A DNA stretch of 64,000 nt from Elusimicrobiota bacterium (GCA_012517235.1 JAAYVI010000117.1:1-64000); one strand, 5' to 3'; shown: positions 11,394 to 28,332, counted from the stretch's first letter. Numbers and translations: made by a program. Notes: a model not told the origin generated them from the letters alone.

Positions 11394-12620
11394 ATGATTG
11401 CGGTATTAATATTATTTGCGGTATTTTTACTTATTTCCGTAAGGCAAATAGGCAGTTTAAAATTGGAAATATGGCAGATAATGTCCGGTGGGGCCGTTTT
11501 GGCTTTGCTTGGCGGTTCGATAAGTTTTTCCGACGCTTTAAAAGCCGTAGATTACGACGTGATAATTTTCCTATTCGGTATGTTTGTTTGCGGAGCTTTA
11601 TTTGAAATAAGCGGTTATCTTTCTTACAATCAGCATAGGATTTTCAAAAAAGCCGATACTTGCGAAAAAATGCTTTTTCTTTTTATTTTTTTCTTCGGAT
11701 TATCTTCGGCTTTGGTGATGAACGATACCGTCGCCGTCATAGGAGTACCGGCTTCGGTTTCACTTTCAAAAAAATATAATTTTCCTTTAAAGATTTTGCT
11801 TTTGGCTTTGGCATTTTCGGTTACCATAGGAAGCGTTTTCAGCCCGATAGGAAATCCTCAAAATCTTTTGATAGCGATAAAATCGGCTATGTCGAATCCT
11901 TTTATAGTTTTTTTAAAATATTTGTTTATTCCTACGATATTAAATCTTTTTTTGCTTTTTCTAATTTTCAGAGCCGTATATTCTCGGTATTTTTCCGATT
12001 TGCCCGATATGGGACATTATATTCCCGAAAAAAAGAAATGGCTTTATTTCCTGTCGAATTTGACTATGGCGATAATTTTAGTCGGAATATCGGCTAAAAT
12101 ATGGTTTTCTTTGAAAGGCGAAAGTTTTCGTCTAACATGGATAGCGGTTTTTGCTTCTATGCCGGCTTTGCTTTTAAGTTTCAAACAAGGGGAGATAATA
12201 AAAAAAACGGATTGGAAAACTTTGATATTTTTTGCCGCCATGTTTATTTTAATGAAAAGCGTTTGGGATAGCGGTTTTTTTCAAAAAATAATACAAAACA
12301 ATGCCTTTGACATTTTATCTTTGCCGTTTATTTTTATTCTTTGCGTTATATTGAGCCAATTTATTTCAAATGTGCCTTTGATAGCTTTGCTTTTGCCGCT
12401 TTTTACTTTGAAGGGGGCAGGGGAAAATCATTTCATAGCTTTGGCCGCCGCTTCCACTTTGGCCGGCAATCTTTCCATACTCGGCGCTGCGAGCAATGTA
12501 ATAATAATACAAGGCGCGGAAAATAGAAAGGAAGGCACCATATCTTTTTGGGAATTTTTTAAAATCGGAGCGCCGCTTACGGCTTTAAATTGCTTTATAT
12601 ATTGGCTTTTTTTAAGATAG
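11394..12620 (+). CDS. ArsB/NhaD-superfamily anion permease
   Basis: 408 aa polytopic protein with SPIGNPQNLLIAI motif. Confidence 0.65.
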   Translation: MIAVLILFAVFLLISVRQIGSLKLEIWQIMSGGAVLALLGGSISFSDALKAVDYDVIIFLFGMFVCGALFEISGYLSYNQHRIFKKADTCEKMLFLFIFFFGLSSALVMNDTVAVIGVPASVSLSKKYNFPLKILLLALAFSVTIGSVFSPIGNPQNLLIAIKSAMSNPFIVFLKYLFIPTILNLFLLFLIFRAVYSRYFSDLPDMGHYIPEKKKWLYFLSNLTMAIILVGISAKIWFSLKGESFRLTWIAVFASMPALLLSFKQGEIIKKTDWKTLIFFAAMFILMKSVWDSGFFQKIIQNNAFDILSLPFIFILCVILSQFISNVPLIALLLPLFTLKGAGENHFIALAAASTLAGNLSILGAASNVIIIQGAENRKEGTISFWEFFKIGAPLTALNCFIYWLFLR

Positions 12621-12673
12621 AATAATAATAAAGATACGGGCAGAAAAAAATCTCCGCCCATAAGGAGTTTTTT

Positions 12674-13474
12674 ATGATGGAAGAAAATATAATTAAAATT
12701 TTAAGCGATGCTATAAGCGAAAGAAAAAATGCGGCTTTTATAACGATAATTTCATCGGGCGGATCCACTCCCAGAGACGCGGGTTCCAAAATGATAGTTT
12801 ATGAAAACGGCTCGATAGCCGGGACCATAGGCGGGGGGAAAATAGAAGCTCTTGCGATAAAAACCGCTCTGGATTGTCTTAAAAAAGGGGAAGGCGGAAA
12901 ATTCGTTTTCGATTTGACTCCCAAAGGCATAGGTATGGCCTGTATGGGTAAAGTGGAAATTTTTATAGACATATACAAAACTCCTTTGAAGGTTTTTATT
13001 TGCGGAGGCGGTCATGTGGCTAAACAATTGGCAAAGGTTCTGGATATAGCCGGCTTTCCTTATGCCGTTGCGGACGACAGAGAAGAATTTGCAAATAAGA
13101 ATAATTTTCCGGGCGCTTACGAAATAATAAACGAATTTCCCGACAAGGCTTTCAAAAAAGCGAAAATAGATTCCGATACTTATATAGTCATAATGACCAG
13201 AGGTCATATGCTGGACGCCGAGTGTTTGATAGAAGCGGTTAAAACAAAGGCCGCTTATATAGGAATGATAGGCAGCGCTTCGAAAGTTAGAACTGTTATG
13301 TCGGATCTTAAGAAGAAAGGCGTGAAAATAGATAAAAGAGTCTATTCTCCTATAGGATTGGATTTGGGCGGTAAAACTCCGGGAGAAATAGCCGTATCCG
13401 TAGCGGCAGAAATACTTAAAATACATTACGGCCGAAGCGGAAATCATATGAGCGTAAATTTGGAGGCAAAATGA
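12674..13474 (+). CDS. xdhC: XdhC/CoxI-family molybdenum-cofactor insertion chaperone
   Basis: N-terminal AAFITIISSGGSTPRDAGSKMIV; Rossmann-like VFICGGGHVAKQLA; 4-nt overlap with the downstream Mo-subunit gene. Confidence 0.8.
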   Translation: MMEENIIKILSDAISERKNAAFITIISSGGSTPRDAGSKMIVYENGSIAGTIGGGKIEALAIKTALDCLKKGEGGKFVFDLTPKGIGMACMGKVEIFIDIYKTPLKVFICGGGHVAKQLAKVLDIAGFPYAVADDREEFANKNNFPGAYEIINEFPDKAFKKAKIDSDTYIVIMTRGHMLDAECLIEAVKTKAAYIGMIGSASKVRTVMSDLKKKGVKIDKRVYSPIGLDLGGKTPGEIAVSVAAEILKIHYGRSGNHMSVNLEAK

Positions 13475-15741
13475 GCAAAGATTTATTTTCTTTCGTCGGC
13501 AAATCATTGGAAAGAGTAGACGGCGCGGTTAAAGCCGAAGGCAAAGCTCTTTACGGAGACGACATATCTTTCCCGAATATGATTTACGCGGCGGCGGTTA
13601 GAAATCCCAAACCGAGAATAGAAATAAGAAAAATGGACGATTCTTTGGCAAAAAAAATAAAAGGATATTTCGGCATAGTTTCTTTTAAGGATATAAAAGG
13701 CAAAAACAGCTGGCCTTTGGTTATGAACGATTATCCTTTTTTACCGGAAAAGGAAGCGAAATTTTACGGAGAAACCTTAGCTTTGGTTTTGGCGGAAAAT
13801 CAAAGAACGGCAAAAAAAGCCGCGGCTTGTGTCAGATTGGATTATAAAGAATTGCCTTTTATAGACGATCCTTTGAAAGCTTTGGAAAAAAAATCTTTGA
13901 AAATATACGGCAAAGATAATATCATATCTTCTTTCAAAATAATAAAGGGCGATGCGGATAAAGCTTTTAAAGACTGCGATGTGGTAATAGAAAAAGAATT
14001 TAGGACAAATTATCAAGTCCATGCTTATTTGGAAACTCAAACCGCTACGGCCGTTCCGGAACCCGACGGTTCTATTACGGTTTATTCTTCTACTCAATGT
14101 CCTTTTTACGTATTGGACGCCGTCGCGGCGGCTTGCGGTTTGCCCAATAATAAGGTCAAGGTAATACAAACCGTTACCGGAGGCGGATTCGGCGGTAAAG
14201 AAGACGTGCCGGCTTTGGTTGCGGCTCATGCGGCTATTTGCGCTTTGAAATTTAACCGTCCGGTAAGGCTTGCCTATGACAGAAAGGAAGATTTTATGAG
14301 TATGTCGAAAAGACATCCTTCTTGGGCCAGAGTAAAATACGGCGCCGATAAAAACGGAAAAATAAAGGCTTGTAAAGTTAAATATGTTTTGGACGGCGGC
14401 GCTTATGCTACTTTGTCGCCGATAGTTTTATGGAGAGGGACGGTTCATGCGGCCGGTCCTTATAAAATAGAAAACGTGTTCATAGAAACTTATGCAGCCG
14501 CGACAAATAAAGTCCCCTGCGGAGCTTATAGAGGATTCGGTCAGCCTCAAATATGCTTCGCGCAGGAATCTTTGATAGACGATCTGGCCGAAAAATTGGG
14601 AATAGATCCGATAGATTTAAGACTTAAAAATATGATTCAAAGCGGAGATAAAACCGCTACGGGTCAGAAAATTGACGAATCCTGCGGATTAAAAGAGCTT
14701 ACGGAAATAGTAAGAAAAAAATCAAGATGGGATAAATCCGAAGTTAAAATAAACGGAGACAAAAGAAGAGCTTTGGGTTTTTCTTGCGCTTATTACGGAG
14801 TCGGACTCGGAGCGAAAGGCAGATATTTGGATAGAGCGGGAGCTTTCGTAAACATATACAGAGACGGTTCGGTTCAGGTAAATGTCGGCAATACCGAAAT
14901 GGGACAAGGCGCTTTAACCGTTCTTTCTCAAATAGCCGCGGAAACTCTTAATGCTCCGATGAAAAATATAAAACTTGCCGAAGTAGATACCTCAAAAGTG
15001 CCTGACAGCGGACCCACGGTAGCCAGTAGAACCACTTTGATGAGCGGAAATGCGATAATAGAAGCTTGCCTGCCTTTGAGAGAAAATATATTCTCGGCCG
15101 CCGCCGAACTTTTAAAAGCCGGTAAAAATAAAATTACCGCTTACGGCGGATTTTTTTACTTCGGGAAAAAGAAAATTTCATTCGAAGAAGCGGTAAAGGA
15201 ATGCTGGTCTAAAAGATTAAAGATGAGCGAACAAGGCTGGTATGCGGCTCCCAATACCACATTTGACATAAATAACGGTCAAGGCAATGCTTATGTTATC
15301 TACTCTTATAGCGCCGATATAGCCGATGTGGAAGTGGATATAAAAACCGGCGAAAAGACAGTTCATAAGATATACGCCGCTTACGATGTAGGGCGCATAA
15401 TAAATCCCAAATTGGCTCACGCTCAAGCTCACGGCGGCATACTTCAAGGTATGGGCTGGGCAATAATGGAAAATTTAATAGTAAAAGACGGAATAATGAA
15501 AAATCCTAATTTTACCGATTATGTCCTTCCCATTTCTACCGACGCCCCTCAGTACGATATAAGTTTCTCGGAGAAGCTCTACAAACACGGGCCTTATAAG
15601 GCTAAAGGTATGGGAGAAGTGCCTTTGATAGGGGTGGCTGCGGCGGTAAGAAATGCGGTTAAAAGAGCTTGCGGAGTTTCTCTGACTTATTGTCCTATGA
15701 TATCGGAAAAAACGCTCAAGACGATAAACGACAAAAAATGA
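13471..15741 (+). CDS. xanthine dehydrogenase-family molybdopterin-binding large subunit (set 1)
   Basis: 756 aa; VTGGGFGGKE and GQGALTVLSQIAAETL motifs. Confidence 0.9.
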   Translation: MSKDLFSFVGKSLERVDGAVKAEGKALYGDDISFPNMIYAAAVRNPKPRIEIRKMDDSLAKKIKGYFGIVSFKDIKGKNSWPLVMNDYPFLPEKEAKFYGETLALVLAENQRTAKKAAACVRLDYKELPFIDDPLKALEKKSLKIYGKDNIISSFKIIKGDADKAFKDCDVVIEKEFRTNYQVHAYLETQTATAVPEPDGSITVYSSTQCPFYVLDAVAAACGLPNNKVKVIQTVTGGGFGGKEDVPALVAAHAAICALKFNRPVRLAYDRKEDFMSMSKRHPSWARVKYGADKNGKIKACKVKYVLDGGAYATLSPIVLWRGTVHAAGPYKIENVFIETYAAATNKVPCGAYRGFGQPQICFAQESLIDDLAEKLGIDPIDLRLKNMIQSGDKTATGQKIDESCGLKELTEIVRKKSRWDKSEVKINGDKRRALGFSCAYYGVGLGAKGRYLDRAGAFVNIYRDGSVQVNVGNTEMGQGALTVLSQIAAETLNAPMKNIKLAEVDTSKVPDSGPTVASRTTLMSGNAIIEACLPLRENIFSAAAELLKAGKNKITAYGGFFYFGKKKISFEEAVKECWSKRLKMSEQGWYAAPNTTFDINNGQGNAYVIYSYSADIADVEVDIKTGEKTVHKIYAAYDVGRIINPKLAHAQAHGGILQGMGWAIMENLIVKDGIMKNPNFTDYVLPISTDAPQYDISFSEKLYKHGPYKAKGMGEVPLIGVAAAVRNAVKRACGVSLTYCPMISEKTLKTINDKK

Positions 15742-15837
15742 TGGGATATTTTAATTTTTGAGGATATGCCTGTTACATAAGTTAAATGAAAAAAAACGGT
15801 AAAATATGCTATTATTAATCTTTGGAGGTTTCCATAT

Positions 15838-16986
15838 ATGTTTAAAAAATTAATTTTGTCTTTGATTTTGTTGTCTTCTTCCGTTTATGCTCAAGACTCT
15901 TACGATAAATTGGCTTCGGAACTGTCTTCAAAATCCGAAGGTATAAAAAAGTTGGCCATAATACCCTTTTCCTACGCCGATAATACTTCTTCCACAAAAG
16001 ACGGCGCCGTCATAGCGGAAAGATTGACAATGAAGCTTATTAATATGCAGAAGTTTGAAATAATAGAAAGAAGCGTATTGAATAAAGTTTTGGACGAATT
16101 AAAACTTCAAAATTCGGGAGCCATAGACGCCGGCAGCGCGAAAGAACTCGGAAAAGTTTTGGGCGTGGACGCTCTTATAACCGGAACTTTGATACCTACC
16201 GCTTCCGGAATAGAAGTTAATGCCAGAGTTATAAAAACGGAAACCGCTCAAGCCATAGCCGCTTCTCAAGTTACCGTACAGAAGGATTGGTACGGCGGCG
16301 ACGTACAGGCTATGCCTCAAAAGACGGAATATCAACAGCCGCAAGCTCAAACGCAGAAACAGCCGATATCTCGAGTAAGAAGCCCTAACGAATACGGATT
16401 TTTTGACGTTATGGTAGGCGCCGGTTCTCAAACGGTGGATATAAAATGGGATACTACAAAATTCGGCGGTTTAGAAATGAACGCTCTCACGGCCAGCGGA
16501 GGCGGACCAATAGGCCTTAGGGTCGGCGGCTTCGGCAAAGGCGTGGTAGGCGGAGATTTTGAATTTTCGGTATCTAAACATTATACCGACGCTCAAAAAG
16601 GCACAATAACTTTTCCTCTTATAGCCAATGTCAATTATCCAGCCGGATTAATAGACGCCACTTCCATAGGCCTTAGCGGAGACTTGCTTTTTAGAACTTT
16701 GACAAAAGCTCAATTCTATTTGGGTATAGGTTTGGGACTGTCTATAAATAATATACAATCTACCGTAATAAAAGACTACTATAATAAGCTTTTGAACGAG
16801 ACCGCCGTAGGATTTATGTTTAGAGTACCGATAGGTTTGAGATTTAACGCCGATAATGTCACTTTCTTTATGGAATATAGGGCGGAAATTAACGCTACGA
16901 GCTTTAACAGAGGATTCGGAAACGAAACTAATAATCTTACTTTCAACGGTTCGAGATTTGTTTTCGGAGTGGGATCTAAATTCTAA
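15838..16986 (+). CDS. outer-membrane protein: periplasmic CsgG/LpoB-like N-terminal domain plus Gly-rich beta-barrel-like C-terminal half
   Basis: signal peptide ending AQD; N-terminal domain paralogous to that of the 8172-10421 protein; C-terminal residue is Phe (RFVFGVGSKF). Confidence 0.6.
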   Translation: MFKKLILSLILLSSSVYAQDSYDKLASELSSKSEGIKKLAIIPFSYADNTSSTKDGAVIAERLTMKLINMQKFEIIERSVLNKVLDELKLQNSGAIDAGSAKELGKVLGVDALITGTLIPTASGIEVNARVIKTETAQAIAASQVTVQKDWYGGDVQAMPQKTEYQQPQAQTQKQPISRVRSPNEYGFFDVMVGAGSQTVDIKWDTTKFGGLEMNALTASGGGPIGLRVGGFGKGVVGGDFEFSVSKHYTDAQKGTITFPLIANVNYPAGLIDATSIGLSGDLLFRTLTKAQFYLGIGLGLSINNIQSTVIKDYYNKLLNETAVGFMFRVPIGLRFNADNVTFFMEYRAEINATSFNRGFGNETNNLTFNGSRFVFGVGSKF

Positions 16987-16988
16987 AA

Positions 16989-17453
16989 ATGAAAAAATTT
17001 CCGCTTAGCTGCGAAATTAACGGTAAAAAAATAAAAAAGGAAATAGATTCTTCTTTAAGACTAATAGATTTCATAAGAGAAGATATGGGCCTTAAAGGCA
17101 CCAAAGAAGGCTGCGGCGAAGGCGAATGCGGTGCCTGTATGGTTTTGCTCGACGGTAAAGCCGTAAATTCCTGTCTTATGATGGCCGTTCAAATACATGG
17201 CAAGAAATTGGTTACCATAGAGGGAATACACGAACATAAATACGGCAAAGAACTTCAAGATTCCTTTGTAAAAGAGGCCGCCGTGCAATGCGGTTTTTGT
17301 ACGCCGGGTTTTATAATAGCCGCTCAGGAAATACTTGCAAAAAATCCCAAAGCCTCTTTGGAAGAAATTAAAGAAGGTCTTGCCGGTAATTTATGCAGAT
17401 GCACCGGATATGAAAATATTTTTAAAGCCGTAGATAAAGCTCGTAAGAAGTAA
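16989..17453 (+). CDS. xanthine dehydrogenase-family [2Fe-2S] small subunit (set 1)
   Basis: CGEGECGACMV...SCLM and QCGFCTPGFII...GNLCRCTGY. Confidence 0.9.
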   Translation: MKKFPLSCEINGKKIKKEIDSSLRLIDFIREDMGLKGTKEGCGEGECGACMVLLDGKAVNSCLMMAVQIHGKKLVTIEGIHEHKYGKELQDSFVKEAAVQCGFCTPGFIIAAQEILAKNPKASLEEIKEGLAGNLCRCTGYENIFKAVDKARKK

Positions 17454-17471
17454 AATTTACTATTTGAGAAT

Positions 17472-18314
17472 ATGCCGGAAATAATAGAAAAATACTATTC
17501 TTTAAAAGAACTTTGGTCTTCCTTAAATAAACTTAATAAAAGCAGAAAATATTTGGCGGGCGGAACGGATTTAACAATATCTTTGTCTTACGGCGAAGAA
17601 AAAACCGAACTTTGGATAGATATAAGCGACATAAAAGAGTTGTCCTTGATAGAGGATAGGAAAGAATTCGTATTTATAGGCGCCGGAATTAAAGTTTCTC
17701 AGCTTGAAAATAATCCGATAGTGAAAAAATGGGTTCCCGCTTTGGCCGAAAGCGTTAAATATTACGCTTCGCCTTCTATTAGAAATACGGCCACTTTGGG
17801 CGGAAATTACGTAAACGCTTCGCCTTGCGCGGACGGAGTTTTAGCTTTGGCGGCTTCTCAAGCTTCGGTCGTTTTAAACCTGAAAAACCGAAGAAGAACT
17901 TTGCCTTTGCTTTCTATTATAAAAGGGCCTAAAAAAATAGATTTAAAAAAAGACGAAATAGCCGAAGGATTTTTGGTACCGAAAATAAAACACGAAGCCG
18001 TTTTTTACAAAATGATGGCAAGAAAAAGATTCGGTATTTCCAAGGCCGGACTTTGTATATGCTATAGGGCGAATAATAAAAAATTAGAATATGTATCTAT
18101 CGCTTTGTCTTCGGTCGCTCCTTCGATAGTAAAGGCGCCAAAAACCGAAGAATTCCTGAAAAATAAGAAAATCGATCAAAATATCGTAAAAAAAGCCTGT
18201 GAAATTATTAAAAGCGAGATAAGTCCGATCGACGACATACGTTCTCAAGCGGAATATAGAAAAGAAATAATTTCCGTTTTCTTGCAAAGAGCTTTGCAAA
18301 AAACTATAGGTTAA
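17472..18314 (+). CDS. xanthine dehydrogenase-family FAD-binding subunit (set 1)
   Basis: YLAGGTDL and TLGGNYVNASPCAD motifs (FAD_binding_5-like). Confidence 0.85.
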   Translation: MPEIIEKYYSLKELWSSLNKLNKSRKYLAGGTDLTISLSYGEEKTELWIDISDIKELSLIEDRKEFVFIGAGIKVSQLENNPIVKKWVPALAESVKYYASPSIRNTATLGGNYVNASPCADGVLALAASQASVVLNLKNRRRTLPLLSIIKGPKKIDLKKDEIAEGFLVPKIKHEAVFYKMMARKRFGISKAGLCICYRANNKKLEYVSIALSSVAPSIVKAPKTEEFLKNKKIDQNIVKKACEIIKSEISPIDDIRSQAEYRKEIISVFLQRALQKTIG

Positions 18315-18341
18315 TTTTTAAAAGTTAAAAGCGGAGGAATA

Positions 18342-20033
18342 ATGAAAATTAAATTTCTTTTGACCGGCGTTTTATTTTTTCTTTCTTCTTTTTCTTATTG
18401 TCAGGAAGACGTAATTTTGAAAGCCGCCAAGAAAGAGTTAAACCGTTCTTTTTCGGAACTTAAAAATGCGGAAAAAGCCCCTCTTTATTTCCTTCAATAC
18501 GAAATATGGCAAGATAAAAACTATTGGGTATCCGCCAATTTGGGCGCTTTGGTTTCCGAAGGAGAAAACGAGCAAAATACCGCTACGGCCGACATAAGAA
18601 TAGGTTCGAGAGAATTGGATAATACTCACGAGATAAAAGGCAAAGAAAGCAGAAACTGGGAATCAAATTCCAAAGAGATAGAAACGGAACTTTTGACTAA
18701 AGGCGACGAAAATGCGATAAGGGCCAAACTTTGGAATCTCACCGATGCGGCTTACAAGGACGCTCTTAACAAATATATGAAGGTAGAGGCCAATAAACAG
18801 GTTACGGCCGGCGAAGAAGATAAGAGCGGAGATTTTTCTCAGGAAAAAACTACAGACGTTTATTACTCCAAAGCGGAAGATATAAAAATAGACAAAGACG
18901 AGATGAGAAAAAAAATAAAAGAGCTTTCTCTTATTTTCAAGAAATACGATTTTATACTGAATTCCTGGACGAGTTTTTCATTGGAATCTCAAAACAGATA
19001 TATAGTCAATTCCGACGGCGCGGAAATAGTAGCCGGAAATAATTACATGAGCATATCTTACGGACTTACGGCGAGAACTACCGACGGTATGGACTTAAGC
19101 AGAAATAAACAATATCATTTTGACAAAGTTTCCGACATTCCTTCTTTTGAAAAAATAGCGGCCGACATGGAAAATTCCGTAAAAGAACTAAAAGCTTTGA
19201 TCGGTTCTCCGTCTCAAGAACCTTATACCGGACCCGCCATATTGGAAAATCAAGCCGCGGCCGTATTTTGGCACGAAATATTCGGACATAGAATAGAAGG
19301 ACACAGACAAAAAAGCGAAAGCGAAGGTCAGACATTCGCAAAGAAAATAGGCGAAAAAATAATGCCGGATTTTTTAAATATCTACGACGATCCGAATATA
19401 AGATATTTTAAAGGAAAATTTTTAAGAGGATATTATTCTTACGACGACGAAGCCGTAAGGGCGCAAAAAGCTTCATTGGTGGAAAAAGGAGTTTTAAAAG
19501 GATTTTTGATGCAGAGAGTCCCTCTGGAAAAATTCCCCAAATCTAACGGTCACGGAAGAAGAAGCGAAGGCAATATGACTGTCGCCAGACAGGGCAATCT
19601 CATAGCCGAGTCTTCCAATAAAGTGCCTTACGAAAAACTCAGAGAAATGCTTTTGGATGAAGTCAAAAAACAAGGAAAACCCTACGGAATAATAATAAAA
19701 GACATAGCCGGCGGCTTTACCATAACTCAAAGATTCCTTCCTCAAAGCTACACTATCTTGATAAAATACGCGGTTAGAGTATATCCCGACGGCCGTCTAG
19801 ACGAGCCCATAAGAGGACTTAATATGATAGGTACGCCTTTGCAGACATTCGGACGAATTTTAGCCGCAGCCGACGACGACGACATATTTAACGGCACATG
19901 CGGCGCGGAATCGGGGTGGGTGCCTGTGTCCGCCGTAAGCCCGAGCCTTTTATTTTCCGAAATAGAAACGGAAAAACTTCAGAAATCAAACGAGATGCCG
20001 CCGATACTTAAAAATCCGATTTTTGAAAAATAA
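18342..20033 (+). CDS. secreted TldD-like metallopeptidase (TldD/PmbA family with HExxGH)
   Basis: signal peptide MKIKFLLTGVLFFLSSFSYCQ; catalytic-type motif FWHEIFGHRIEGH; 563 aa. Confidence 0.75.
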   Translation: MKIKFLLTGVLFFLSSFSYCQEDVILKAAKKELNRSFSELKNAEKAPLYFLQYEIWQDKNYWVSANLGALVSEGENEQNTATADIRIGSRELDNTHEIKGKESRNWESNSKEIETELLTKGDENAIRAKLWNLTDAAYKDALNKYMKVEANKQVTAGEEDKSGDFSQEKTTDVYYSKAEDIKIDKDEMRKKIKELSLIFKKYDFILNSWTSFSLESQNRYIVNSDGAEIVAGNNYMSISYGLTARTTDGMDLSRNKQYHFDKVSDIPSFEKIAADMENSVKELKALIGSPSQEPYTGPAILENQAAAVFWHEIFGHRIEGHRQKSESEGQTFAKKIGEKIMPDFLNIYDDPNIRYFKGKFLRGYYSYDDEAVRAQKASLVEKGVLKGFLMQRVPLEKFPKSNGHGRRSEGNMTVARQGNLIAESSNKVPYEKLREMLLDEVKKQGKPYGIIIKDIAGGFTITQRFLPQSYTILIKYAVRVYPDGRLDEPIRGLNMIGTPLQTFGRILAAADDDDIFNGTCGAESGWVPVSAVSPSLLFSEIETEKLQKSNEMPPILKNPIFEK

Positions 20034-20045
20034 TTTGGAGGAAAA

Positions 20046-21731
20046 ATGAATATAATTTTAGCCGTTTTTTTAATTTTGACAGCTTCGAATATCAAGGCTC
20101 AAGAGGATAATGTTTTAAAAGCCGTTTCCGACGAGGTAAATAGAACCGCGGCAAAGCTTAAAATAGAAAAATCTTCCGCTCCTTATTTCGCTTCGTGTTA
20201 CGTAGCCGACAGTTCGGAGACTTATATTTCGGCTTCTTTCGGAGAAATAAAGGAAAGCAAGTCTTATTTTAACAGAAACGGCAGATTTGAAGTCAGAATA
20301 GGAAACGAAATGTTTGACAGTTCTCATTATATTTCCAATTTCAGAGATTATAGGCCCGTATTTAGGAATTTGCCGGTTGAAGACGATTATGACAGCATAA
20401 GAAAAAGTCTTTGGCTTATGGCCGACGAAGCTTATAAAATCGCCGTTGAAAGATATTCTCAAAAAGAAGCTTATAGAAAGAAAAAAGACATAAAAGAAAT
20501 TTACGGAGATTTAAGTATTGAAAAACCGAACAGGTATTTTGAAAAAAATTCTTCTTGCGGAAATTTGGATAAACAGAGATGGGAGAAAAGACTTAAGAAT
20601 ATTTCTCAATTATTTAGAAAATATCCCAATATTTCAGATTCCGACATAAATGCCAGATTTTCTTCGGTAACCAGAAGGTTTTCCGATTCTCAAGGCTTTT
20701 CGTATAAAACATATTCCTGCGAAGCTTATGTTTCTATTTTTGTCTATATGCAGAACGAAGAAGGATATAAATTGAAAGACAATAAAGATTTTCTATATGC
20801 TTCGTGGAAAGAGGCGGAAGAGGATAATATAGAAGCGAAGGCGGAAGAATATGCGAAGTCATTAAACGATTCGTATAAAGCGGAAAAGATAGATTATTAT
20901 GTGGGTCCGGCTCTTTTCACTCAAGAAGCCGCGGCCGAATTTTTAAATCAGCTTTTTGTAAGAAATATTTCTTTCAATCCGAAACCCTGGGCCGATAAAG
21001 ACGAATGGCTCAAGTATTATTATGAAATTCCCAAATTAAAAGACAGAATAGGCAAAAGAATTTTGCCGGGATTTATTTGGGTTTACGACGATGCTAAGGC
21101 AAAAGAATACGAAGGCAGGAAACTTGCCGGATATTATGAGATAGATTCCGAAGGAATAGCGCCTTTGAAATTAGAACTGGTAAAAAAAGGAAAACTCGAA
21201 ACGATATACGCTTCCAGAAATCCCGACGAAAAAATAAGAAATTCCAACGGAAGGGGGAGAGCTTCTTATAATTTTTTCCCTTATGCTACCGCGGCAAACG
21301 TTTTCTTTATGTCGGATAAAAAATTAGATTCGCCTTCGGTAAAAGAAAAATTAATTTCTCTGGGAAAAGAACAGGAATTGGATTATGTTCTCGTAGTAAA
21401 GAAAATCGCTTCCTACAAAGATTCCGAAAGCAATCTCGGCAATCCTATTTTGGCTTATAAATTGGATCTTAAAACGGGCAAAGAAACTCCTTTAAACATA
21501 TCGGAATTCGAAGGGATAGGCCTCAGGGCTTTAAGAGACATCGAAGCGGTTTCTTCAAAAAATCAGGTGTATAATTTTTACCAGAGAGGCCCGTATTCGT
21601 ATTCGGCAAGCGCCGTACCTACTTCTATTATTTGTCCTCAAGACATATTAATCAGAGAAATAGAAATAAAGAAAACTCAGGATAAACCGGAAAAAAAACC
21701 GTATCTCAAACATCCGTATTTTACCAAATAG
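20046..21731 (+). CDS. secreted TldE/PmbA-like partner lacking HExxGH
   Basis: signal peptide MNIILAVFLILTASNIKAQ; same architecture as the upstream gene but LNQLFVRN occupies the HExxGH position. Confidence 0.65.
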   Translation: MNIILAVFLILTASNIKAQEDNVLKAVSDEVNRTAAKLKIEKSSAPYFASCYVADSSETYISASFGEIKESKSYFNRNGRFEVRIGNEMFDSSHYISNFRDYRPVFRNLPVEDDYDSIRKSLWLMADEAYKIAVERYSQKEAYRKKKDIKEIYGDLSIEKPNRYFEKNSSCGNLDKQRWEKRLKNISQLFRKYPNISDSDINARFSSVTRRFSDSQGFSYKTYSCEAYVSIFVYMQNEEGYKLKDNKDFLYASWKEAEEDNIEAKAEEYAKSLNDSYKAEKIDYYVGPALFTQEAAAEFLNQLFVRNISFNPKPWADKDEWLKYYYEIPKLKDRIGKRILPGFIWVYDDAKAKEYEGRKLAGYYEIDSEGIAPLKLELVKKGKLETIYASRNPDEKIRNSNGRGRASYNFFPYATAANVFFMSDKKLDSPSVKEKLISLGKEQELDYVLVVKKIASYKDSESNLGNPILAYKLDLKTGKETPLNISEFEGIGLRALRDIEAVSSKNQVYNFYQRGPYSYSASAVPTSIICPQDILIREIEIKKTQDKPEKKPYLKHPYFTK

Positions 21732-21752
21732 CCTATTTTTATTCTCTTAATC

Positions 21753-21804
21753 GGTGACAATTATCCGACGGCCGTCTAATAACTGTCACCTTTGGTTTCT
21801 ATTT
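21753..21804 (+). terminator. rho-independent terminator after the TldE-like gene
   Basis: GGTGACAATTATCCGACGGCCGTCTAATAACTGTCACC stem-loop followed by TTTGGTTTCTATTT. Confidence 0.6.
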
Positions 21805-21904
21805 ATTGATGGCGGGAATTTTAAAAAAGACGGATGAGAACGTATTTTAACTAAAGCCATTTTTCGGTTATTTTTATATAATATTTTTATTAATAGGAGG
21901 GAGT

Positions 21905-22738
21905 GTGAATATAAAACAAGTTTATTTCCCAAAAACTCTCAAAGAGGCTTTGTCTTTAACAAAGAAAAAAAATTCGGTTTTCATAGCCGGTTCTTCTTAT
22001 TCTTTTAAAAATATCCCGTCTCAAGCGGAGATAGCGGTAATGGGTTCGAATTTGCCTCTGACTTACATAAAAAAAGATTCCAAAAACTTAATTCTGGGAG
22101 CCGGCGCGACATTCGCCGATATGGAGGAAAACAAAATTTGTAAAACTCTTTTCGGAGGAGTACTTGCAAAAGCCGCTTCGGCTTGCTCAAGCCAGCTTAT
22201 AAGGAATATGGCTACGGTAGGCGGAAATCTCGCTCATCCCAACGCTTTTAATCTTATGCCTTTGCTATGTTCCTGTATGGACGCAAAAGTTAAAATAATG
22301 TCTTCTTCGGGAACTAAAACTGTTTTATGGAAAGAAATATACGGCGGAAAATATAAAGCGGGAAAAGATTTTCTCATAACCGAAATCCTTTTCCCTTTGT
22401 CTTATTCCAAAAATATTTTTTATTTTGAGAAGGTTTCTAAAATAAAATCTTCCTGGGATTCTTATATAACCGTCTGTTTTTCTCTCGAACTTAAAAAATC
22501 GGCGGTTAAAAATATATCTTTGGCTTTTTCCGCTTTGAGAGCCATACCCATAAGAGCTTTAGAAGCCGAAAAAAAACTCATAGGCAAAACGCTCGACTCT
22601 CAAACGATAAGCGAGGCCGCCGATTTATGCGCTCAAGAAATACTTTCCGTTCACAAAGGTTCTTCGTGGGAGTATAAGGCGAAACTCGCCGGGAATTTGA
22701 CTTCTTATTTTCTTTCTACGGCCGCGGAGGCAAAATGA
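21905..22738 (+). CDS. xanthine dehydrogenase-family FAD-binding subunit (set 2, divergent)
   Basis: GTG start with AGGAGG ribosome-binding site; ATVGGNLAHPNAF...LLCSCMDAKV; the AGGTDL position reads AGSSY. Confidence 0.75.
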   Translation: MNIKQVYFPKTLKEALSLTKKKNSVFIAGSSYSFKNIPSQAEIAVMGSNLPLTYIKKDSKNLILGAGATFADMEENKICKTLFGGVLAKAASACSSQLIRNMATVGGNLAHPNAFNLMPLLCSCMDAKVKIMSSSGTKTVLWKEIYGGKYKAGKDFLITEILFPLSYSKNIFYFEKVSKIKSSWDSYITVCFSLELKKSAVKNISLAFSALRAIPIRALEAEKKLIGKTLDSQTISEAADLCAQEILSVHKGSSWEYKAKLAGNLTSYFLSTAAEAK

Positions 22739-23235
22739 AAAGCGAAAATCTTACTTTAAATAAAAACGGGAAATTCGAAATAAATTTTACTCTTAACGGA
22801 AAAGAAATTTCCGCGCAAGTAAAACCTAAAGAAACTTTATTGGAAGCTTTAAGAGCTTTGGGTTATAAAGGCACAAAGAAAGGATGCGACACCGGAGATT
22901 GCGGTTCTTGCGCGGTAATTTTTAACGGAAAACCTAAAGTATCTTGTCTTATGCCGGCTTTCGCCGCGCATAAAGCCGAGATAATTACGATAGAAGGTAT
23001 AGGAAGCGTTTCCAAACCTCATCCGATACAGGAAGCTTTTGTCGAAGCCGGCGCCGTGCAATGCGGATACTGCATACCCGGAATGATAATTTCTACGAAA
23101 GCGCTTTTGGATAAAAATCCGAATCCGAGCGAAGAAGAGATAAAGCATTCTTTGGACGGCAATCTCTGCAGATGCACCGGATATGTGAAACAAATAGAAG
23201 CGGTTAAATTAGCCGCCAAGAAATTGGCGAAATAA
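22735..23235 (+). CDS. xanthine dehydrogenase-family [2Fe-2S] small subunit (set 2)
   Basis: CDTGDCGSCAVI...SCLM and QCGYCIPGMII...GNLCRCTGY. Confidence 0.9.
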   Translation: MKSENLTLNKNGKFEINFTLNGKEISAQVKPKETLLEALRALGYKGTKKGCDTGDCGSCAVIFNGKPKVSCLMPAFAAHKAEIITIEGIGSVSKPHPIQEAFVEAGAVQCGYCIPGMIISTKALLDKNPNPSEEEIKHSLDGNLCRCTGYVKQIEAVKLAAKKLAK

Positions 23236-23246
23236 TCGGAGAAAAT

Positions 23247-25571
23247 ATGAACGAAACAAAAAATTTCAAATGCGTAAACAAGAGAGTGGCTAAAATAGAT
23301 TCTTTGGGTTTGGCCTGCGGCGAACCGATGTTTGCCGACGACATAGATATAAAAGGACTTCTTCACGCAAAAATTTTATGGAGTCCTCACGCTCATGCCA
23401 AAATAAAAAACATAGACGTTTCCAAAGCTTTGAAAATAAAAGGCGTAAAAGCGGTTTTAACTTATAAAGACGTGCCGAGAATACCTCATACCACGGCCGG
23501 ACAGGGTTATCCCGAACCTTCTCCCTACGACACTTATGTTTTGGACAATAAAGTAAGATATGTCGGAGACAGAGTAGCCGCCGTTGCCGCGGAAACTCTT
23601 GAAGCCGCTGAAGAAGCTTTGGCCGCGATAAAAGTGGATTATGAAATTTTGCCGGCCGTTTTCGATCAGTTGGACGCTTTAAAGGACGGCGCGCCGGTAA
23701 TACACGACGAAAAAGATTCTAAAAATATTCCGGACGCAAAAAGAAATATAGCGGCAAAATTCGATTTTGAAGTCAAAAATTCGGAATGGTTCAAAGAAGC
23801 CGACTATGTGATAGAACAAACATACAGAATACCTTACTTTCAACATTGCGCCATAGAGCCGCATACCACTATCTGTTATTTCGATCATCAAAACAGATTG
23901 ATAATAAGAACCTCCACTCAGGTGCCTTTCCATGTTAGAAGAATAGTGGCTCAGGCATTAAACATACCGGTTAAAAACATAAGAGTGATAAAACCGAGAA
24001 TAGGAGGAGGATTTGGTTCAAAACAGGAAGTTTTGGAAGACATAGTAGCCGCTCTGGCTTTGAAAACCAATAACCCGGTTAAATTGGAATATACCAGAAA
24101 AGAAGTTTTTGTTTCTTCGAGAACCAGACATCCGGCATTCATGCGTCTTAAAACCGGAGTAAAAAAAGACGGAACAATAACCGACGCCGATATGGAAATA
24201 ATATTAAATACCGGCGCCTACGGCTCTCACGCTCTTACGGTTATGATGTGTTCCGGTTCGCATACCATTCCGATGTATAAAGTGAAAAATAATATAAGAT
24301 TTTCCGGCAAAAGCGTATACACAAATATGCCTGTGGCCGGAGCTTATAGAGGATACGGAGCTACTCAGGGATTTTACGGCTGGGAAACTCAGATGGATAT
24401 GATGGCCGAAAAAATCGGCATGGATCCCGTGGAATTTAGAAAGAAAAACTATATAAAATTGGGAGAAGGCTCTCCCGTTTTTAAGGCTATGGGCGAAGGC
24501 AGGGAAGGCGTAGAACAGGTTATAACTTCCATAGGCCTCGACGAAGCCATAGAAAGAGGACTGAAAGAAATAAAATGGTACGATAAAAAAGCCGAATATG
24601 AAAAATTCAATAAAACCTCTTCAAGAATAAAAAAAGGTTTGGGTATGGCTTGCCTTATGCAGGGTTCGGGTATTCCGGAAATAGATATGGCCAGCGCAAC
24701 CATAAAAATGAACGAAGACGGCTCTTTCAATCTTTCCGTCGGCGCGACCGATCTGGGCACCGGTTCCGATACCATACTTGCTCAAATAGCCGCAGAGGTA
24801 TTATGTGTGCCCAATACCGACATAATAGTTTATTCTTCCGACACGGATCTTACGCCTTTTGACGTAGGAGCTTACGCTTCCAGCACGACTTTTATTTCGG
24901 GAAACGCCGTAAGAAAAACCGCCGAAAAAGTAAGAGATATGATAATAGAAGTGGCGGCTAAAATATTGGAGGAAAAAGCGGAGAATTTATATTTGGCCGA
25001 CAAACATGTTTTCTCCAAAGACGGCAAAAAGGTTTCTTTCTCTGAAGTAGCCAATACTTCTTTATACTACTACAATCAGCATCAAATAATAGCCAGCGCT
25101 TCCCATACCGCGCATACGTCTCCGCCGCCTTTTTCGGCTCATTTTGCCGACATAGAAGCCGATACGGTAACGGGGGAAATAACCGTTAAAGAATATGTTT
25201 CCTGCATAGACTGCGGTACGGCCGTAAATCCTACTTTGGCGGAAGGTCAAAACGACGGCGCGGTTGTAAACGGAATAAGCCATACATTGGCGGAAGGTCT
25301 TGAATTTTCTCCAAACGGCACGCCTCTAAACGCCAATTTCAGGCGATATAAAATATTTACTTCAAAAGACATAGAAAAAATTAAAACCATACTTATTCCG
25401 ACTTACGAACCCAACGGACCTTTCGGCGCCAAGTCGGTTTCCGAAATAGGCATAAACGGACCTTTGCCGGCTATAAACAATGCCATTTACGACGCTTTAA
25501 AAATAAGGCTTTTCGAAGCGCCTTTTACTCCCGACAAAGTCCTTTCCGCCTTGGAGAAAAAAGTCGGATAA
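23247..25571 (+). CDS. xanthine dehydrogenase-family molybdopterin-binding large subunit (set 2)
   Basis: 774 aa; IGGGFGSKQE motif. Confidence 0.9.
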   Translation: MNETKNFKCVNKRVAKIDSLGLACGEPMFADDIDIKGLLHAKILWSPHAHAKIKNIDVSKALKIKGVKAVLTYKDVPRIPHTTAGQGYPEPSPYDTYVLDNKVRYVGDRVAAVAAETLEAAEEALAAIKVDYEILPAVFDQLDALKDGAPVIHDEKDSKNIPDAKRNIAAKFDFEVKNSEWFKEADYVIEQTYRIPYFQHCAIEPHTTICYFDHQNRLIIRTSTQVPFHVRRIVAQALNIPVKNIRVIKPRIGGGFGSKQEVLEDIVAALALKTNNPVKLEYTRKEVFVSSRTRHPAFMRLKTGVKKDGTITDADMEIILNTGAYGSHALTVMMCSGSHTIPMYKVKNNIRFSGKSVYTNMPVAGAYRGYGATQGFYGWETQMDMMAEKIGMDPVEFRKKNYIKLGEGSPVFKAMGEGREGVEQVITSIGLDEAIERGLKEIKWYDKKAEYEKFNKTSSRIKKGLGMACLMQGSGIPEIDMASATIKMNEDGSFNLSVGATDLGTGSDTILAQIAAEVLCVPNTDIIVYSSDTDLTPFDVGAYASSTTFISGNAVRKTAEKVRDMIIEVAAKILEEKAENLYLADKHVFSKDGKKVSFSEVANTSLYYYNQHQIIASASHTAHTSPPPFSAHFADIEADTVTGEITVKEYVSCIDCGTAVNPTLAEGQNDGAVVNGISHTLAEGLEFSPNGTPLNANFRRYKIFTSKDIEKIKTILIPTYEPNGPFGAKSVSEIGINGPLPAINNAIYDALKIRLFEAPFTPDKVLSALEKKVG

Positions 25572-25677: not shown

Positions 25678-26841
25678 ATGGAAATAAATAACATAATAAG
25701 AAATTTTGAGGAAATCCATAAAAGACTTATAGACTCTCTGCCGCAAAGAATAAGGCCGGTAAGTTTGGAATCGAATATAAGCGAAAAGAGAGCGGTTATA
25801 GTGTACGGACTTAGGGGAGTCGGTAAAACCGTATTTCTTTTAAATGCGTCTAAAAACAAAAATTTTCTTTATTTCTCCGCGGATAACCCTTTAATATATA
25901 ATATCCCCATAATAGAGTTAATCGATAAAATATTTAAATCCGGTTATGACGGAGTAGTAATAGACGAGATTCATTTTTCTAAGGATTGGGCGGCCCATTT
26001 GAAATCCGCTTATGACAGTTATCCTTCAAAAACAATATGGGTAAGCGGCAGCAGCAATCTTGTTTTGAAAAAAGGCCTTGCCGATTTATCGAGAAGATTT
26101 TTGTCCGTACATCTTCCTTTGCTTTCTTTTAGAGAATATATATATTTAAAAGAAGGGATAATGCTGGATAAGATAAATCTATTTGAGAGCATAAAAAACT
26201 ACGATAATATTAAATCTAAAAAAATAAATGTTTTAAAACTTTTTAAAGAACATATAAACGGCGGAATAAGGCCGATATTTTATGAAGGCGATTATAGTGA
26301 AAGGCTTAAAAATATGATTGAAAAAAGTGTTTTTTACGACATTCCTTTTTACATAAATACGATTACCGACAATTATTTAAGATTAATGAACGGCATAATC
26401 GGCCATTTGATAACTTCTCCTATCCCGACCTTAAATATCTCAAAAATGACCTCCGAGTGGGAGATAGGCAAACATAAATTGTATTTTTTGCTTGAAATTA
26501 TGGACAAAATGGAATTGATAAAAATTATAAAACCTAAAAATAAAAAACATACATATACAAAGGGCTCAAAAATATTTTTGACCGACTCTTCGATATATTC
26601 TTGTTTTAACGGAAATCTGGGAAATATAAGAGAATCCTATTTCGTAAACTCCGTTTCCAAATCCTATCCGATTTGTTCAAGCGAAAACGAAGATGAGTAT
26701 GATTATCTGGTCGGCGATTTAAAATTGGAAATAGGCGGCAAATCTAAATCGCTTAAAAAAGCCGATTTTGTCATAAGCGACGATATTGAAATGCCGGTTA
26801 AAAATAGAATACCTTTGTGGATGGCGGGACTTACTTACTAA
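25678..26841 (+). CDS. AAA-type ATPase of the AAA_14/DUF4143 family
   Basis: Walker A YGLRGVGKT; Walker B VVIDEIH; gene is visibly lower in GC than its neighbours. Confidence 0.7.
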   Translation: MEINNIIRNFEEIHKRLIDSLPQRIRPVSLESNISEKRAVIVYGLRGVGKTVFLLNASKNKNFLYFSADNPLIYNIPIIELIDKIFKSGYDGVVIDEIHFSKDWAAHLKSAYDSYPSKTIWVSGSSNLVLKKGLADLSRRFLSVHLPLLSFREYIYLKEGIMLDKINLFESIKNYDNIKSKKINVLKLFKEHINGGIRPIFYEGDYSERLKNMIEKSVFYDIPFYINTITDNYLRLMNGIIGHLITSPIPTLNISKMTSEWEIGKHKLYFLLEIMDKMELIKIIKPKNKKHTYTKGSKIFLTDSSIYSCFNGNLGNIRESYFVNSVSKSYPICSSENEDEYDYLVGDLKLEIGGKSKSLKKADFVISDDIEMPVKNRIPLWMAGLTY

Positions 26842-27009: not shown

Positions 27010-28332
27010 GTGGATAAAAAAGAGATTCTTAAAAAGATAGAAAAAGAAAATATAAATTTCATAAAGCTTTGTTTTGTCGATATTTTGGGACAGCTCAAAG
27101 CTTTTGCCATAACCAAAAGAGAATTGGAACACGCTTTAAACGAAGGCATGGGTTTTGACGGCTCTTCGGTCGAAGGTTTTGCCAGAATTTACGAATCCGA
27201 TTTGAGATTACTGCCCGATTGCGAAACTTTTAACATACTGCCGGTTTCTTTCGACGGTACAAAAACGGCGGTGATGTTCGGAGATATAATAACACCCGAG
27301 GGGAAAAATTACGAGGGAGATACTAGATTTATATTAAAGAAAAATTTGGCGGAAATGAAAAAAATGGGTTTTGACAGATTTATGGTCGGTCCGGAACTCG
27401 AATATTTTTATTTTTCAAATTCGTCGAAGCCTCAAATACTCGATAACGGCGGATACTTCGACAGCGTTCCTGTGGACGAATCCAGCGATTTAAGAAAAGA
27501 AACCATACTTGTTTTGGAAGAGATGGGCATACCGGTAGAATATTCCCATCACGAAGTGGCTCCCAGTCAGCATGAAATAGATCTCAGATACGACGAAGCC
27601 TTGAAAATGGCCGATAAAGTTATACTCTATAAACTTATCGTAAAGCAAATAGCGGCCAGAAAAAATATTTACGCTTCTTTTATGCCCAAACCTCTAAACG
27701 GAGTAAACGGCAGCGGAATGCATGTTCATCAATCTCTTTTCAAGGGAGATAAAAATACTTTTTTTGACAAAAAAGACGAGAATTTTTTATCCGATACCGC
27801 CAAAGCGTATTCCGCCGGCATACTTAAACATGTAAGGGAAATTTGCGCCGTAACAAATCAATGGGTAAATTCTTATAAAAGACTTGTTCCCGGATTTGAA
27901 GCTCCGGTTTATATAGCATGGGCGAGAAGAAACAGATCGGCTTTGGTAAGAATCCCTCAGTCTTTGGTAGGCCATGAAAAATCCACGAGAATAGAAGCGA
28001 GATTTCCCGACCCCGGCGCCAATCCGTATCTTGCTTTTTCGGTTATGTTGAAAGCGGGATTGGAGGGAATAAAAAATAATTATAAGCTGCCCAAAGCCGT
28101 AGAAGCCGATATTTACGAAATGGACGAAATCGAGAGAAAGGCAAATAAAATAAATACTTTGCCCGGTTCTCTTTTGGAAGCTCTGGAAGAATTTGAAAAA
28201 TCGAAAATAATGAAAGAGGCTTTGGGCGAACATGTTTTTGAAAAGTTTTTGGAAAATAAGAAAATAGAATGGGATAATTATAGAATTAAAGTTACGGATT
28301 ACGAGGTAGACAGATATTTGCCAATATTGTAG
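27010..28332 (+). CDS. glnA: glutamine synthetase type I
   Basis: GTG start after AAGGAGG; FDGSSVEGF and KPLNGVNGSGMHVHQSL motifs; 440 aa. Confidence 0.9.
   Translation: MDKKEILKKIEKENINFIKLCFVDILGQLKAFAITKRELEHALNEGMGFDGSSVEGFARIYESDLRLLPDCETFNILPVSFDGTKTAVMFGDIITPEGKNYEGDTRFILKKNLAEMKKMGFDRFMVGPELEYFYFSNSSKPQILDNGGYFDSVPVDESSDLRKETILVLEEMGIPVEYSHHEVAPSQHEIDLRYDEALKMADKVILYKLIVKQIAARKNIYASFMPKPLNGVNGSGMHVHQSLFKGDKNTFFDKKDENFLSDTAKAYSAGILKHVREICAVTNQWVNSYKRLVPGFEAPVYIAWARRNRSALVRIPQSLVGHEKSTRIEARFPDPGANPYLAFSVMLKAGLEGIKNNYKLPKAVEADIYEMDEIERKANKINTLPGSLLEALEEFEKSKIMKEALGEHVFEKFLENKKIEWDNYRIKVTDYEVDRYLPIL

Follow-up and report, generated by a model that had tools for sequence, protein, structure and literature searches.

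Why should two sets of genes for molybdenum hydroxylases, proteins without signal peptides, be arranged around genes for proteins of the cell envelope? This question is raised by ten genes in a 64,000-nucleotide stretch of DNA from an Elusimicrobiota bacterium (GCA_012517235.1 JAAYVI010000117.1:1-64000), which was analysed in its full length and is referred to here as the window. The ten genes all lie on the plus strand and encode, in this order, an XdhC-family factor, a molybdopterin subunit (Mo-1), an outer-membrane protein (OMP), a [2Fe-2S] subunit (FeS-1), a flavin adenine dinucleotide (FAD) subunit (FAD-1), a TldD-like and a TldE-like protein, and the corresponding subunits FAD-2, FeS-2 and Mo-2 of a second set (Table 1). 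The two sets mirror each other on the same strand, with the order Mo-FeS-FAD in set 1 and FAD-FeS-Mo in set 2. An earlier note on this DNA, made from the sequence alone, had proposed that the envelope proteins point to a pathway for acquiring or processing a substrate.

The layout is unusual, but it is assembled from known parts. On balance, we favour the explanation that the cluster is a purine operon conserved in Elusimicrobiota, into which envelope genes were inserted that are co-expressed with the hydroxylase genes and do not provide an obligatory delivery route. These genes are probably lineage-specific insertions, widely retained and occasionally lost.

Active sites and probable purine context of the two hydroxylases

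When Mo-1 was aligned to bovine xanthine oxidase (3sr6_C), residues Q209, E244, R322, R354, F356 and E716 coincided with Gln767, Glu802, Arg880, Arg912, Phe914 and the catalytic Glu1261, which bind and activate purines in the bovine and Rhodobacter xanthine oxidoreductases (XOR) (PMC3311054). The equivalent of Glu802, E244, sits in the motif GGGFGGKE, and the purine-site residues are conserved in all four Mo-1 orthologs compared. This suggests that set 1 carries the residue signature of a xanthine dehydrogenase (XDH), with xanthine or hypoxanthine as the probable substrate. Set 1 shares its domain set and the residues Gln767, Glu802, Arg880, Phe914 and Glu1261 with bovine and Rhodobacter capsulatus XOR and with Bacillus subtilis PucCDE; pucD is its top NCBIfam match, and a gene for an XdhC-type chaperone lies adjacent. 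All Pfam matches of set 1 exceed the gathering scores. In contrast to these systems, the set-1 operon is split by the OMP gene, and its sequence identity to them is only about 30-35%. E. coli XdhA also differs, as it has Gln and Ala at the positions of Glu802 and Arg880, where set 1 has Glu and Arg.

The second set resembles a different member of the family. By tblastn with E. coli XdhD, XdhA and YgfM, combined with an alignment of four Mo-1 and five Mo-2 orthologs, Mo-2 was found to be 38% identical to XdhD (493 bits) and 33% identical to XdhA (407 bits), and Mo-2 together with its relatives reaches 38-43% identity and 493-594 bits to XdhD. The motifs GGGFGSKQ[ED], MQ[GK]SGIP-ID and KS[VI]SEIG are common to Mo-2 and XdhD, the first one reading GGGFGSKQE in Mo-2 itself. 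Mo-2 keeps the catalytic Glu and has Gln at the Glu802 site and Cys at the Arg880 site. Furthermore, an insertion loop with the equivalent of XdhD Glu606 (GEG) is present in five of five Mo-2 orthologs and deleted in both XdhA and Mo-1. The FeS and Mo subunits of set 2 are encoded by separate genes, unlike those of XdhD, which are fused. In two relatives (L006 and L113; loci from relatives are given by such numbers), E. coli XdhD, beginning at its residue 3, gives a single tblastn match that starts in the set-2 FeS gene and extends into the Mo gene. The order FAD-FeS-Mo therefore corresponds to ygfM-xdhD with the FeS-Mo fusion split, which explains the mirrored layout. Set 2 is thus best described as a putative split-gene counterpart of E. 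coli YgfM-XdhD, and by this likeness it may act on urate in the reductive direction.

The earlier note had correctly read AGSSY in FAD-2, a reading confirmed in our alignment, and had proposed on this basis that the subunit may bind FAD atypically or not at all. The AGSS variant is confined to the window and to L119, its closest relative, while the other orthologs read AGGT or AGST. E. coli YgfM itself reads AGGS, and it co-purifies with active XdhD (10.1101/2025.05.19.654654). Since the variant is lineage-specific and close to that of YgfM, and since the second motif T-x-GGN is intact in FAD-2 (TVGGN), a loss of FAD binding seems unlikely from the alignment, and the proposal is weak.

In E. 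coli, XdhD-YgfM reduces urate to isoxanthine and XdhA oxidises xanthine, with YgfK and SsnA acting next; the SsnA family also occurs in Elusimicrobiota (10.1101/2025.05.19.654654). The E. coli reductive uric-acid locus (xdhABC; ygfK-ssnA-ygfM-xdhD; mocA, yqeB) likewise combines two enzymes of the XDH family with different purine roles, XdhA forming urate from xanthine and XdhD-YgfM forming isoxanthine from urate, and its FAD-(FeS+Mo) order matches that of set 2. However, the two E. coli sets are 18 kb apart, whereas they are contiguous in the Elusimicrobiota cluster. The E. coli locus has no interleaved genes for exported envelope proteins, and the window in turn lacks the genes of the downstream pathway.

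Genes of that pathway are found around the cluster in relatives. In L121, the order is 8-oxoguanine deaminase, MocA-like, XdhC, Mo1, FeS1, FAD1, FAD2, FeS2, Mo2, SsnA, whereby both the SsnA gene directly after Mo-2 (484.4, equivalog cut-off 444) and the 8-oxoguanine deaminase gene upstream (643.9, cut-off 532) score as equivalogs. Full clusters in L098, L107 and L113 are immediately preceded by a YgfK-like and an SsnA-like gene, and a YgfK-like gene is also found upstream in L006, L088, L093 and L003. The amidohydrolase upstream of the cluster in relatives had been taken as SsnA/GuaD-like, an assignment that was replaced by the 8-oxoguanine deaminase equivalog; an M20 peptidase near L120 was considered as YgeY-like and rejected, as it is PepT.

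In the mechanism that we propose, the core of the cluster would be an anaerobic purine-catabolic operon consisting of XdhC, a three-subunit xanthine/hypoxanthine dehydrogenase and a three-subunit, split YgfM-XdhD. In both enzymes, maturation of the molybdenum cofactor would depend on XdhC together with a MocA-type cytidylyltransferase, whose gene is found close by in relatives. Set 1 would convert hypoxanthine and xanthine to urate, and set 2 would reductively dehydroxylate urate to isoxanthine, which would pass to ring-reducing and ring-cleaving enzymes of the YgfK/SsnA type, encoded beside the cluster in relatives and, in this genome, possibly elsewhere or not at all. If so, the recently described reductive uric-acid pathway would extend to an uncultured phylum, in a compact, split-gene form with the XDH-type and XdhD-type enzymes adjacent.

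Several observations weigh against a purine role. The position of Phe1009 in Mo-1 is occupied by Leu beside a gap/2-residue insertion, where the local alignment is uncertain; this site also separates set 1 from bovine and R. capsulatus XOR and PucCDE. The pucD model scores only 529.2 with Mo-1, below its equivalog cut-off of 783.65, and Mo-2 reaches 690.9 with XdhA_XDHase (NF043082; cut-off 780) and 601.9 with Se_sel_red_Mo (TIGR03313; cut-off 1101.9), a model which includes a fused FeS domain. No subunit of either set attains an NCBIfam equivalog cut-off. The role of XdhD Glu606 has only been proposed, from structure prediction in a preprint (10.1101/2025.05.19.654654). In addition, no homolog of SsnA, YgfK, HyuA or YgeW/X/Y was found in the 64 kb of the window.

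The scores below the cut-offs and the lack of other purine-pathway genes in the window could suit enzymes of another catabolic pathway that act on aldehydes, nicotinate-type N-heterocycles or aromatic acyl-CoA. Consistent with this alternative, the top sequence match among solved structures for both Mo-1 and Mo-2 is 4-hydroxybenzoyl-CoA reductase (4-HBCR), whose alpha subunit gives 328 and 365 bits, and XdhC scores highest with a model of aldehyde-oxidoreductase maturation (XdhC_rel_AOR, 252.7 bits, below the cut-off of 350). Nevertheless, we consider a non-purine role improbable, as it is opposed by the Glu802/Arg880 pair of Mo-1, the XdhD-specific motifs and Glu606 loop of Mo-2, and the SsnA, YgfK-like and 8-oxoguanine deaminase genes that flank the cluster in relatives.

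An identity as 4-HBCR was ruled out by the length and scores of the FAD subunits and by active-site residues. The beta subunit of 4-HBCR carries an extra [4Fe-4S] loop, and the FAD subunits of the window, with 277-280 residues, are too short to hold it; their 4hydrxCoA_B scores are 82.7 and 32.5 against a cut-off of 404.55. The 4-HBCR alpha model gives 471.6 and 550.5 (cut-off 994.55), and 4-HBCR has GGGFGARTE without the Glu802/Arg880 pair found in Mo-1. Periplasmic hydroxylases like PaoABC were ruled out as well: the subunits carry neither twin-arginine translocation (TAT) nor Sec signals, and the PaoC scores are 302 and 294.6 against a cut-off of 1180. The statement of the earlier note that the substrate cannot be told from sequence was accordingly too pessimistic, given the XDH signature of set 1, the XdhD/YgfM match of set 2 and the purine-gene neighbours in relatives.

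Gene order and its variants in relatives

The synteny is conserved in related genomes. The exact order XdhC-Mo1-OMP-FeS1-FAD1-TldD-TldE-FAD2-FeS2-Mo2 recurs in four of them (L005, L006, L007 and L113), and two others follow it as far as they extend, namely L106, on a contig that begins within Mo1, and L119, where a small CsgG-like gene is added. The full order is kept at OMP identities down to 41-44% and at GC contents of 0.36-0.60. With a single exception, the Mo-1 homologs that have a source name come from Elusimicrobiota; their identity goes down to about 51%. The genes are also closely spaced: in L006, all junctions from XdhC to GlnA are overlapping or at most 70 bp, with overlapping start and stop codons between Mo1 and OMP, and in L120 the FAD1-TldD and TldE-FAD2 junctions overlap.

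This spacing bears on the claim that the window holds two operons, of which the first ends in a strong terminator. In the window, TldE and FAD2 are separated by a spacer of 173 bp, in which an imperfect hairpin is followed by a T-rich run, and a spacer of 96 bp precedes the OMP gene. If the hairpin were a terminator, two independent operons could simply lie side by side, and their arrangement would have no significance. However, "strong" is an overstatement: the hairpin was not called in a scan for terminator patterns, and its fold of -20.8 kcal/mol over 99 nt is unremarkable compared with shuffled sequence (z-score of only -1.8). In relatives, the TldE-FAD2 gap is 8-20 bp, which leaves no room for a hairpin, so that a division into two operons could at best apply locally, to this one genome. 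Moreover, the order is kept where the junctions are 8-20 bp or overlapping, and the two sets are adjacent in every examined relative that has both. A chance juxtaposition of two operons is therefore very improbable, and the cluster may well be transcribed as one unit.

Besides the full cluster, several variants were found. The OMP gene is absent from L112 and L120, with the remainder kept, and the TldD/E genes are absent from L108, which keeps the OMP gene. L110 and L121 have neither and read XdhC/Mo1-FeS1-FAD1-FAD2-FeS2-Mo2. L003 lacks set 1, while L004 has the OMP gene with a small CsgG-like gene beside ClpB and no Mo genes. The Mo-1 C-terminus was used for a neighbour-joining tree, in which L112, L108 and L094 fall within the clade with the full cluster. 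This suggests a secondary loss of envelope genes; the tree is coarse (about 230 residues, without bootstrap), and the polarity of loss and gain is provisional.

The slots of the envelope genes are occupied differently in a sister clade. In its five loci (L099, L100, L102, L109 and L114), Mo1-FeS1-FAD1 is directly followed by a gene for an exported protein of roughly 920 residues. This protein (14245-17013 in L109) combines a signal peptide with an MA-clan peptidase domain (Peptidase_MA_2, motif HEFGHE) and a PD40/TolB-like propeller, and its C-terminal stretch, ending in GPVF, reads like a beta-barrel. Two of the five loci (L109 and L114) additionally encode, between Mo1 and FeS1, a FlgO-like exported protein of 238-241 residues, whose start and stop codons overlap with those of the adjacent genes.

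According to the explanation that we favour, an LpoB/FlgO-like OMP gene would have been inserted in one sublineage between the Mo and FeS genes of set 1, and, between the two sets, the genes of a TldD/TldE zinc-peptidase heterodimer, an exported pair of one catalytic and one non-catalytic subunit. The encoded proteins would work in the periplasm or outer membrane and would not be parts of the hydroxylases. Most likely, they would be co-expressed with purine and nitrogen catabolism, as GlnA follows the cluster, in a scavenging response. Two findings speak against regarding the envelope genes as mere passengers. Their insertion sites are conserved down to 41-44% OMP identity and at GC contents of 0.36-0.60, with start and stop codons that overlap those of the hydroxylase genes, and the same two slots are refilled by unrelated exported proteins, which suggests that the combination is selected, although not obligatory.

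The same findings could be read more strongly, in that the envelope proteins are an integral part of the pathway. They would acquire or process an external substrate such as nucleoprotein, necromass or a peptide-linked heterocycle, the CitMHS permease would import the products and the two cytoplasmic molybdenum enzymes would hydroxylate them. The exact ten-gene order in distant genomes, the overlapping codons in L006 and L120, the recurrence of the CitMHS permease upstream, and the exported zinc peptidase and FlgO-like protein of the sister clade, which look like non-orthologous replacements in the same slots, would all fit this alternative. We nevertheless judge it rather unlikely. One or both modules are missing from operons that are otherwise the same (L121, L110, L112, L120 and L108), the losses nest within the full-cluster clade, and the link between peptide cleavage and purine hydroxylation has no known chemistry. 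The earlier note had named relatives without the OMP and TldD/E genes in otherwise identical operons as a case that would refute its proposal, since it would point to a chance insertion. Such operons do exist (L121 and L110 fully; L112, L120 and L108 in part), yet the insertions are widely retained and tightly coupled.

Two side observations concern the composition of related loci. L003 and L005 have nearly identical FAD-2 subunits, and their other shared genes have near-equal identity to those of the window; however, L003 is without Mo1, FeS1 and FAD1 and encodes an OMP of 392 residues (62% identity to that of the window), while the OMP of L005 has 441 residues (44%). This difference suggests a recent segment replacement. 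L122 (9001-20274) has three tandem XDH-family sets, the first separated from the second by MocA and XdhC, and no envelope genes.

The exported proteins

Within the ten-gene cluster, only the OMP, the TldD-like and the TldE-like protein have a hydrophobic N-terminal segment followed by a small-residue cleavage site. The hydroxylase subunits of both sets have no hydrophobic N-terminus, and inspection of the N-termini found a twin-arginine motif in none of the cluster proteins. The distribution of signal peptides that had been described before is thereby borne out; the permease upstream also has a hydrophobic N-terminal segment.

The signal peptide of the OMP ends in SSSVYA|QD without a lipobox Cys, in contrast to the lipoproteins of the CsgG/FlgO/LpoB type, and its anchoring in the membrane would instead be provided by a predicted C-terminal beta-barrel. 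In an AlphaFold 2 model (pLDDT 84.7), an LpoB-like periplasmic domain is connected by a disordered linker to this small barrel. Pfam matches to CsgG (44.5 bits) and FlgO (34.4 bits) are both above the cut-offs, and in Foldseek searches the N-terminal domain matched LpoB (TMt 0.73-0.74; 0.74 for 4q6l), superposing on the LpoB C-domain, while the barrel matched the 8-strand class of OprG, OmpW and OmpX. The two-domain fusion has no counterpart among the matched solved structures, as each PDB match covers only the barrel or the N-terminal domain, and the nonameric channel architecture of CsgG is not that of the OMP. Judging from the model, the barrel probably serves for anchoring rather than as a solute channel. 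A purine channel of the Tsx/FadL type was considered and rejected, given the match to the small OmpX/OmpW/OprG barrels and TM scores to FadL below 0.2. All OMP homologs with a source name are from Elusimicrobiota.

A separate gene upstream of the cluster (8172-10421) encodes an exported protein of 749 residues that combines an N-terminal FlgO/LpoB/CsgG-like domain of the OMP type with six WG_beta_rep (KWG) repeats. The family of this N-terminal domain appears to be expanded in the organism of the window.

The TldD-like protein has the motif HExxxH (HEIFGH) and a Cys520 motif, both invariant in 17 homologs and aligned with the motif of E. coli TldD (5nj5_A), whereas the TldE-like protein lacks HExxxH. 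The hydrophobic signal segments of both proteins end in A-x-A-like cleavage sites, as do those of homologs in other phyla. By sequence, the two proteins form what looks like a canonical pair of an active and an inactive TldD/E subunit, except that both are exported. Like E. coli TldD/TldE (PmbA; PDB 5NJ5), they are encoded by two paired genes, have the HExxxH and Cys ligands in one subunit only and share the PmbA_TldD C-terminal domain in both subunits. In contrast, the E. coli proteins are cytoplasmic, while the present pair has Sec-type signal peptides and is about 80-110 residues longer. The similarity is also weak: E. coli TldD matches the TldD-like protein with 49 bits, and the NCBIfam score of the latter is 88.5 against a TldD cut-off of 635. 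The TldE-like protein has no PDB sequence match and no NCBIfam match.

The two exported TldD/E genes are adjacent wherever a locus extends far enough downstream. The pair occurs in Acidobacteriota, Planctomycetota, Polyangia, Obscuribacterales, Verrucomicrobia, Ignavibacteria and other Elusimicrobiota, standing alone in about 70 loci of other phyla. Outside one Elusimicrobiota lineage, no Mo-subunit or OMP gene was found within 10 kb of it, and no conserved neighbour was found in 79 loci of other phyla, where the most frequent family reached 13 of 79, probably as lineage synteny. The exported pair is a self-contained module in many phyla. We found no paper describing this subfamily, to which our results draw attention.

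In three Acidobacteriota loci (L038 at 7422-13431, L047 and L051), the exported TldD/E genes are preceded, at a distance of about 1.5-3.4 kb, by genes for XdhC and a MocA-like protein, and no gene for a Mo subunit was found within 10 kb. Another phylum thus provides a second case in which XdhC and TldD/E are adjacent.

Two properties of the envelope proteins also speak against an integral role. The exported TldD/E pair is autonomous in many phyla as well as elsewhere in Elusimicrobiota, where it has neither a conserved neighbour nor Mo genes within 10 kb, and the OMP barrel belongs to the small OmpX/OmpW/OprG class and is not a typical solute channel. A pathway of substrate acquisition or processing, as previously proposed, is thus not established, given the operons without envelope genes and the autonomous TldD/E, but some regulatory or functional link remains plausible. 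As a more speculative possibility, which we hold only tentatively, Elusimicrobiota may deliberately co-produce purine hydroxylases with envelope zinc peptidases and LpoB/FlgO-like OMPs as one scavenging unit for nitrogen from nucleoprotein or necromass; this idea comes from the observation that both positions, behind the set-1 FAD gene and between Mo and FeS, hold non-homologous exported proteins in different clades. If true, it would offer a first lead on the physiology of the exported TldD/E proteins, a widespread subfamily. The natural series of operon variants, with or without OMP, with or without TldD/E, or with another peptidase, could be used to test a functional tie between envelope peptidases and the catabolism of purines and nitrogen.

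Layout of the region and neighbouring genes

The gene identities, coordinates and domains given before for the ten genes were reproduced exactly by open reading frames and Pfam matches (Table 1). The window comes from an Elusimicrobiota metagenome contig, and its GC content is low, about 0.35-0.42. An Rfam scan of the whole window for molybdenum cofactor, purine or other riboswitches returned tRNA only, and literature searches combining Elusimicrobia with xanthine dehydrogenase or with TldD gave nothing relevant.

Table 1. Positions of the clustered genes, the hairpin between TldE and FAD2, and two flanking genes in the window
Feature	Position	Strand	Basis
CitMHS/IT-superfamily anion permease	11394..12620	+	Pfam CitMHS 152 bits; NCBIfam DASS match weak
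XdhC-family molybdenum cofactor insertion/maturation factor	12674..13474	+	Pfam XdhC_CoxI + XdhC_C
Set-1 molybdopterin subunit Mo-1, putative xanthine-dehydrogenase-type active site	13471..15741	+	Ald_Xan_dh_C + MoCoBD_1 + MoCoBD_2
Exported outer-membrane protein (OMP)	15838..16986	+	Pfam CsgG/FlgO/LpoB N-terminal domain
Set-1 [2Fe-2S] subunit FeS-1	16989..17453	+	Fer2 + Fer2_2; NCBIfam XdhC_XDHase 185.9 bits
Set-1 FAD subunit FAD-1	17472..18314	+	FAD_binding_5 + CO_deh_flav_C; motifs AGGTDL, TLGGN
Exported TldD-like zinc metallopeptidase, catalytic partner	18342..20033	+	PmbA_TldD_3rd 7e-31; N-terminal signal peptide
Exported TldE/PmbA-like partner without HExxxH	20046..21731	+	PmbA_TldD_3rd 8e-13
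Imperfect hairpin and T-rich tract, possible attenuating terminator	21753..21790	+	Sequence and folding
Set-2 FAD subunit FAD-2, putative YgfM counterpart, GTG start	21905..22738	+	FAD_binding_5 + CO_deh_flav_C; AGSS variant, TVGGN kept
Set-2 [2Fe-2S] subunit FeS-2, corresponding to the N-terminal domain of E. coli XdhD	22735..23235	+	Fer2 + Fer2_2
Set-2 molybdopterin subunit Mo-2, putative XdhD type	23247..25571	+	Ald_Xan_dh_C + MoCoBD_1 + MoCoBD_2
Type I glutamine synthetase GlnA	27010..28332	+	TIGR00653 512.6 bits, above the 429 cut-off

The permease upstream of XdhC had been described as of the ArsB/NhaD type, which is consistent with its CitMHS family match, and it is also found upstream of XdhC in L002, L003, L005, L092, L093, L096 and L113. 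Between its stop codon and the ribosome-binding site of xdhC, a hairpin with a 12-bp stem (12635-12662), which matches no Rfam family, could be the permease terminator or a regulatory element.

GlnA follows Mo2 in L005, L006 and L007 as well and may belong to the same nitrogen-related neighbourhood. In the window, a gene for an AAA_14 ATPase (25678-26841) lies between Mo-2 and GlnA, which are directly neighbouring in L006, and is likely a local insertion. The order GlnA-OEP-membrane fusion protein-ABC-MacB is common to the window and L006, with the window adding a ZIP transporter between GlnA and OEP.

Further upstream, a six-gene operon resembling that of a membrane-bound [NiFe] hydrogenase (834-8048) encodes two Proton_antipo_M proteins, NADHdh, a small membrane protein, a Complex1_49kDa large subunit and an Oxidored_q6 small subunit; the junction of hydrogenase, permease and XdhC is also found in L002. 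Downstream of the cluster lie genes for a hybrid-cluster protein (38182-39837, minus strand), ResB/CcsA cytochrome c assembly (40429-42119), the cytochrome c552 nitrite reductase NrfA (42588-44027) and a DUF438-hemerythrin-PAS protein (44037-45194), which together suggest a module for nitrite ammonification.

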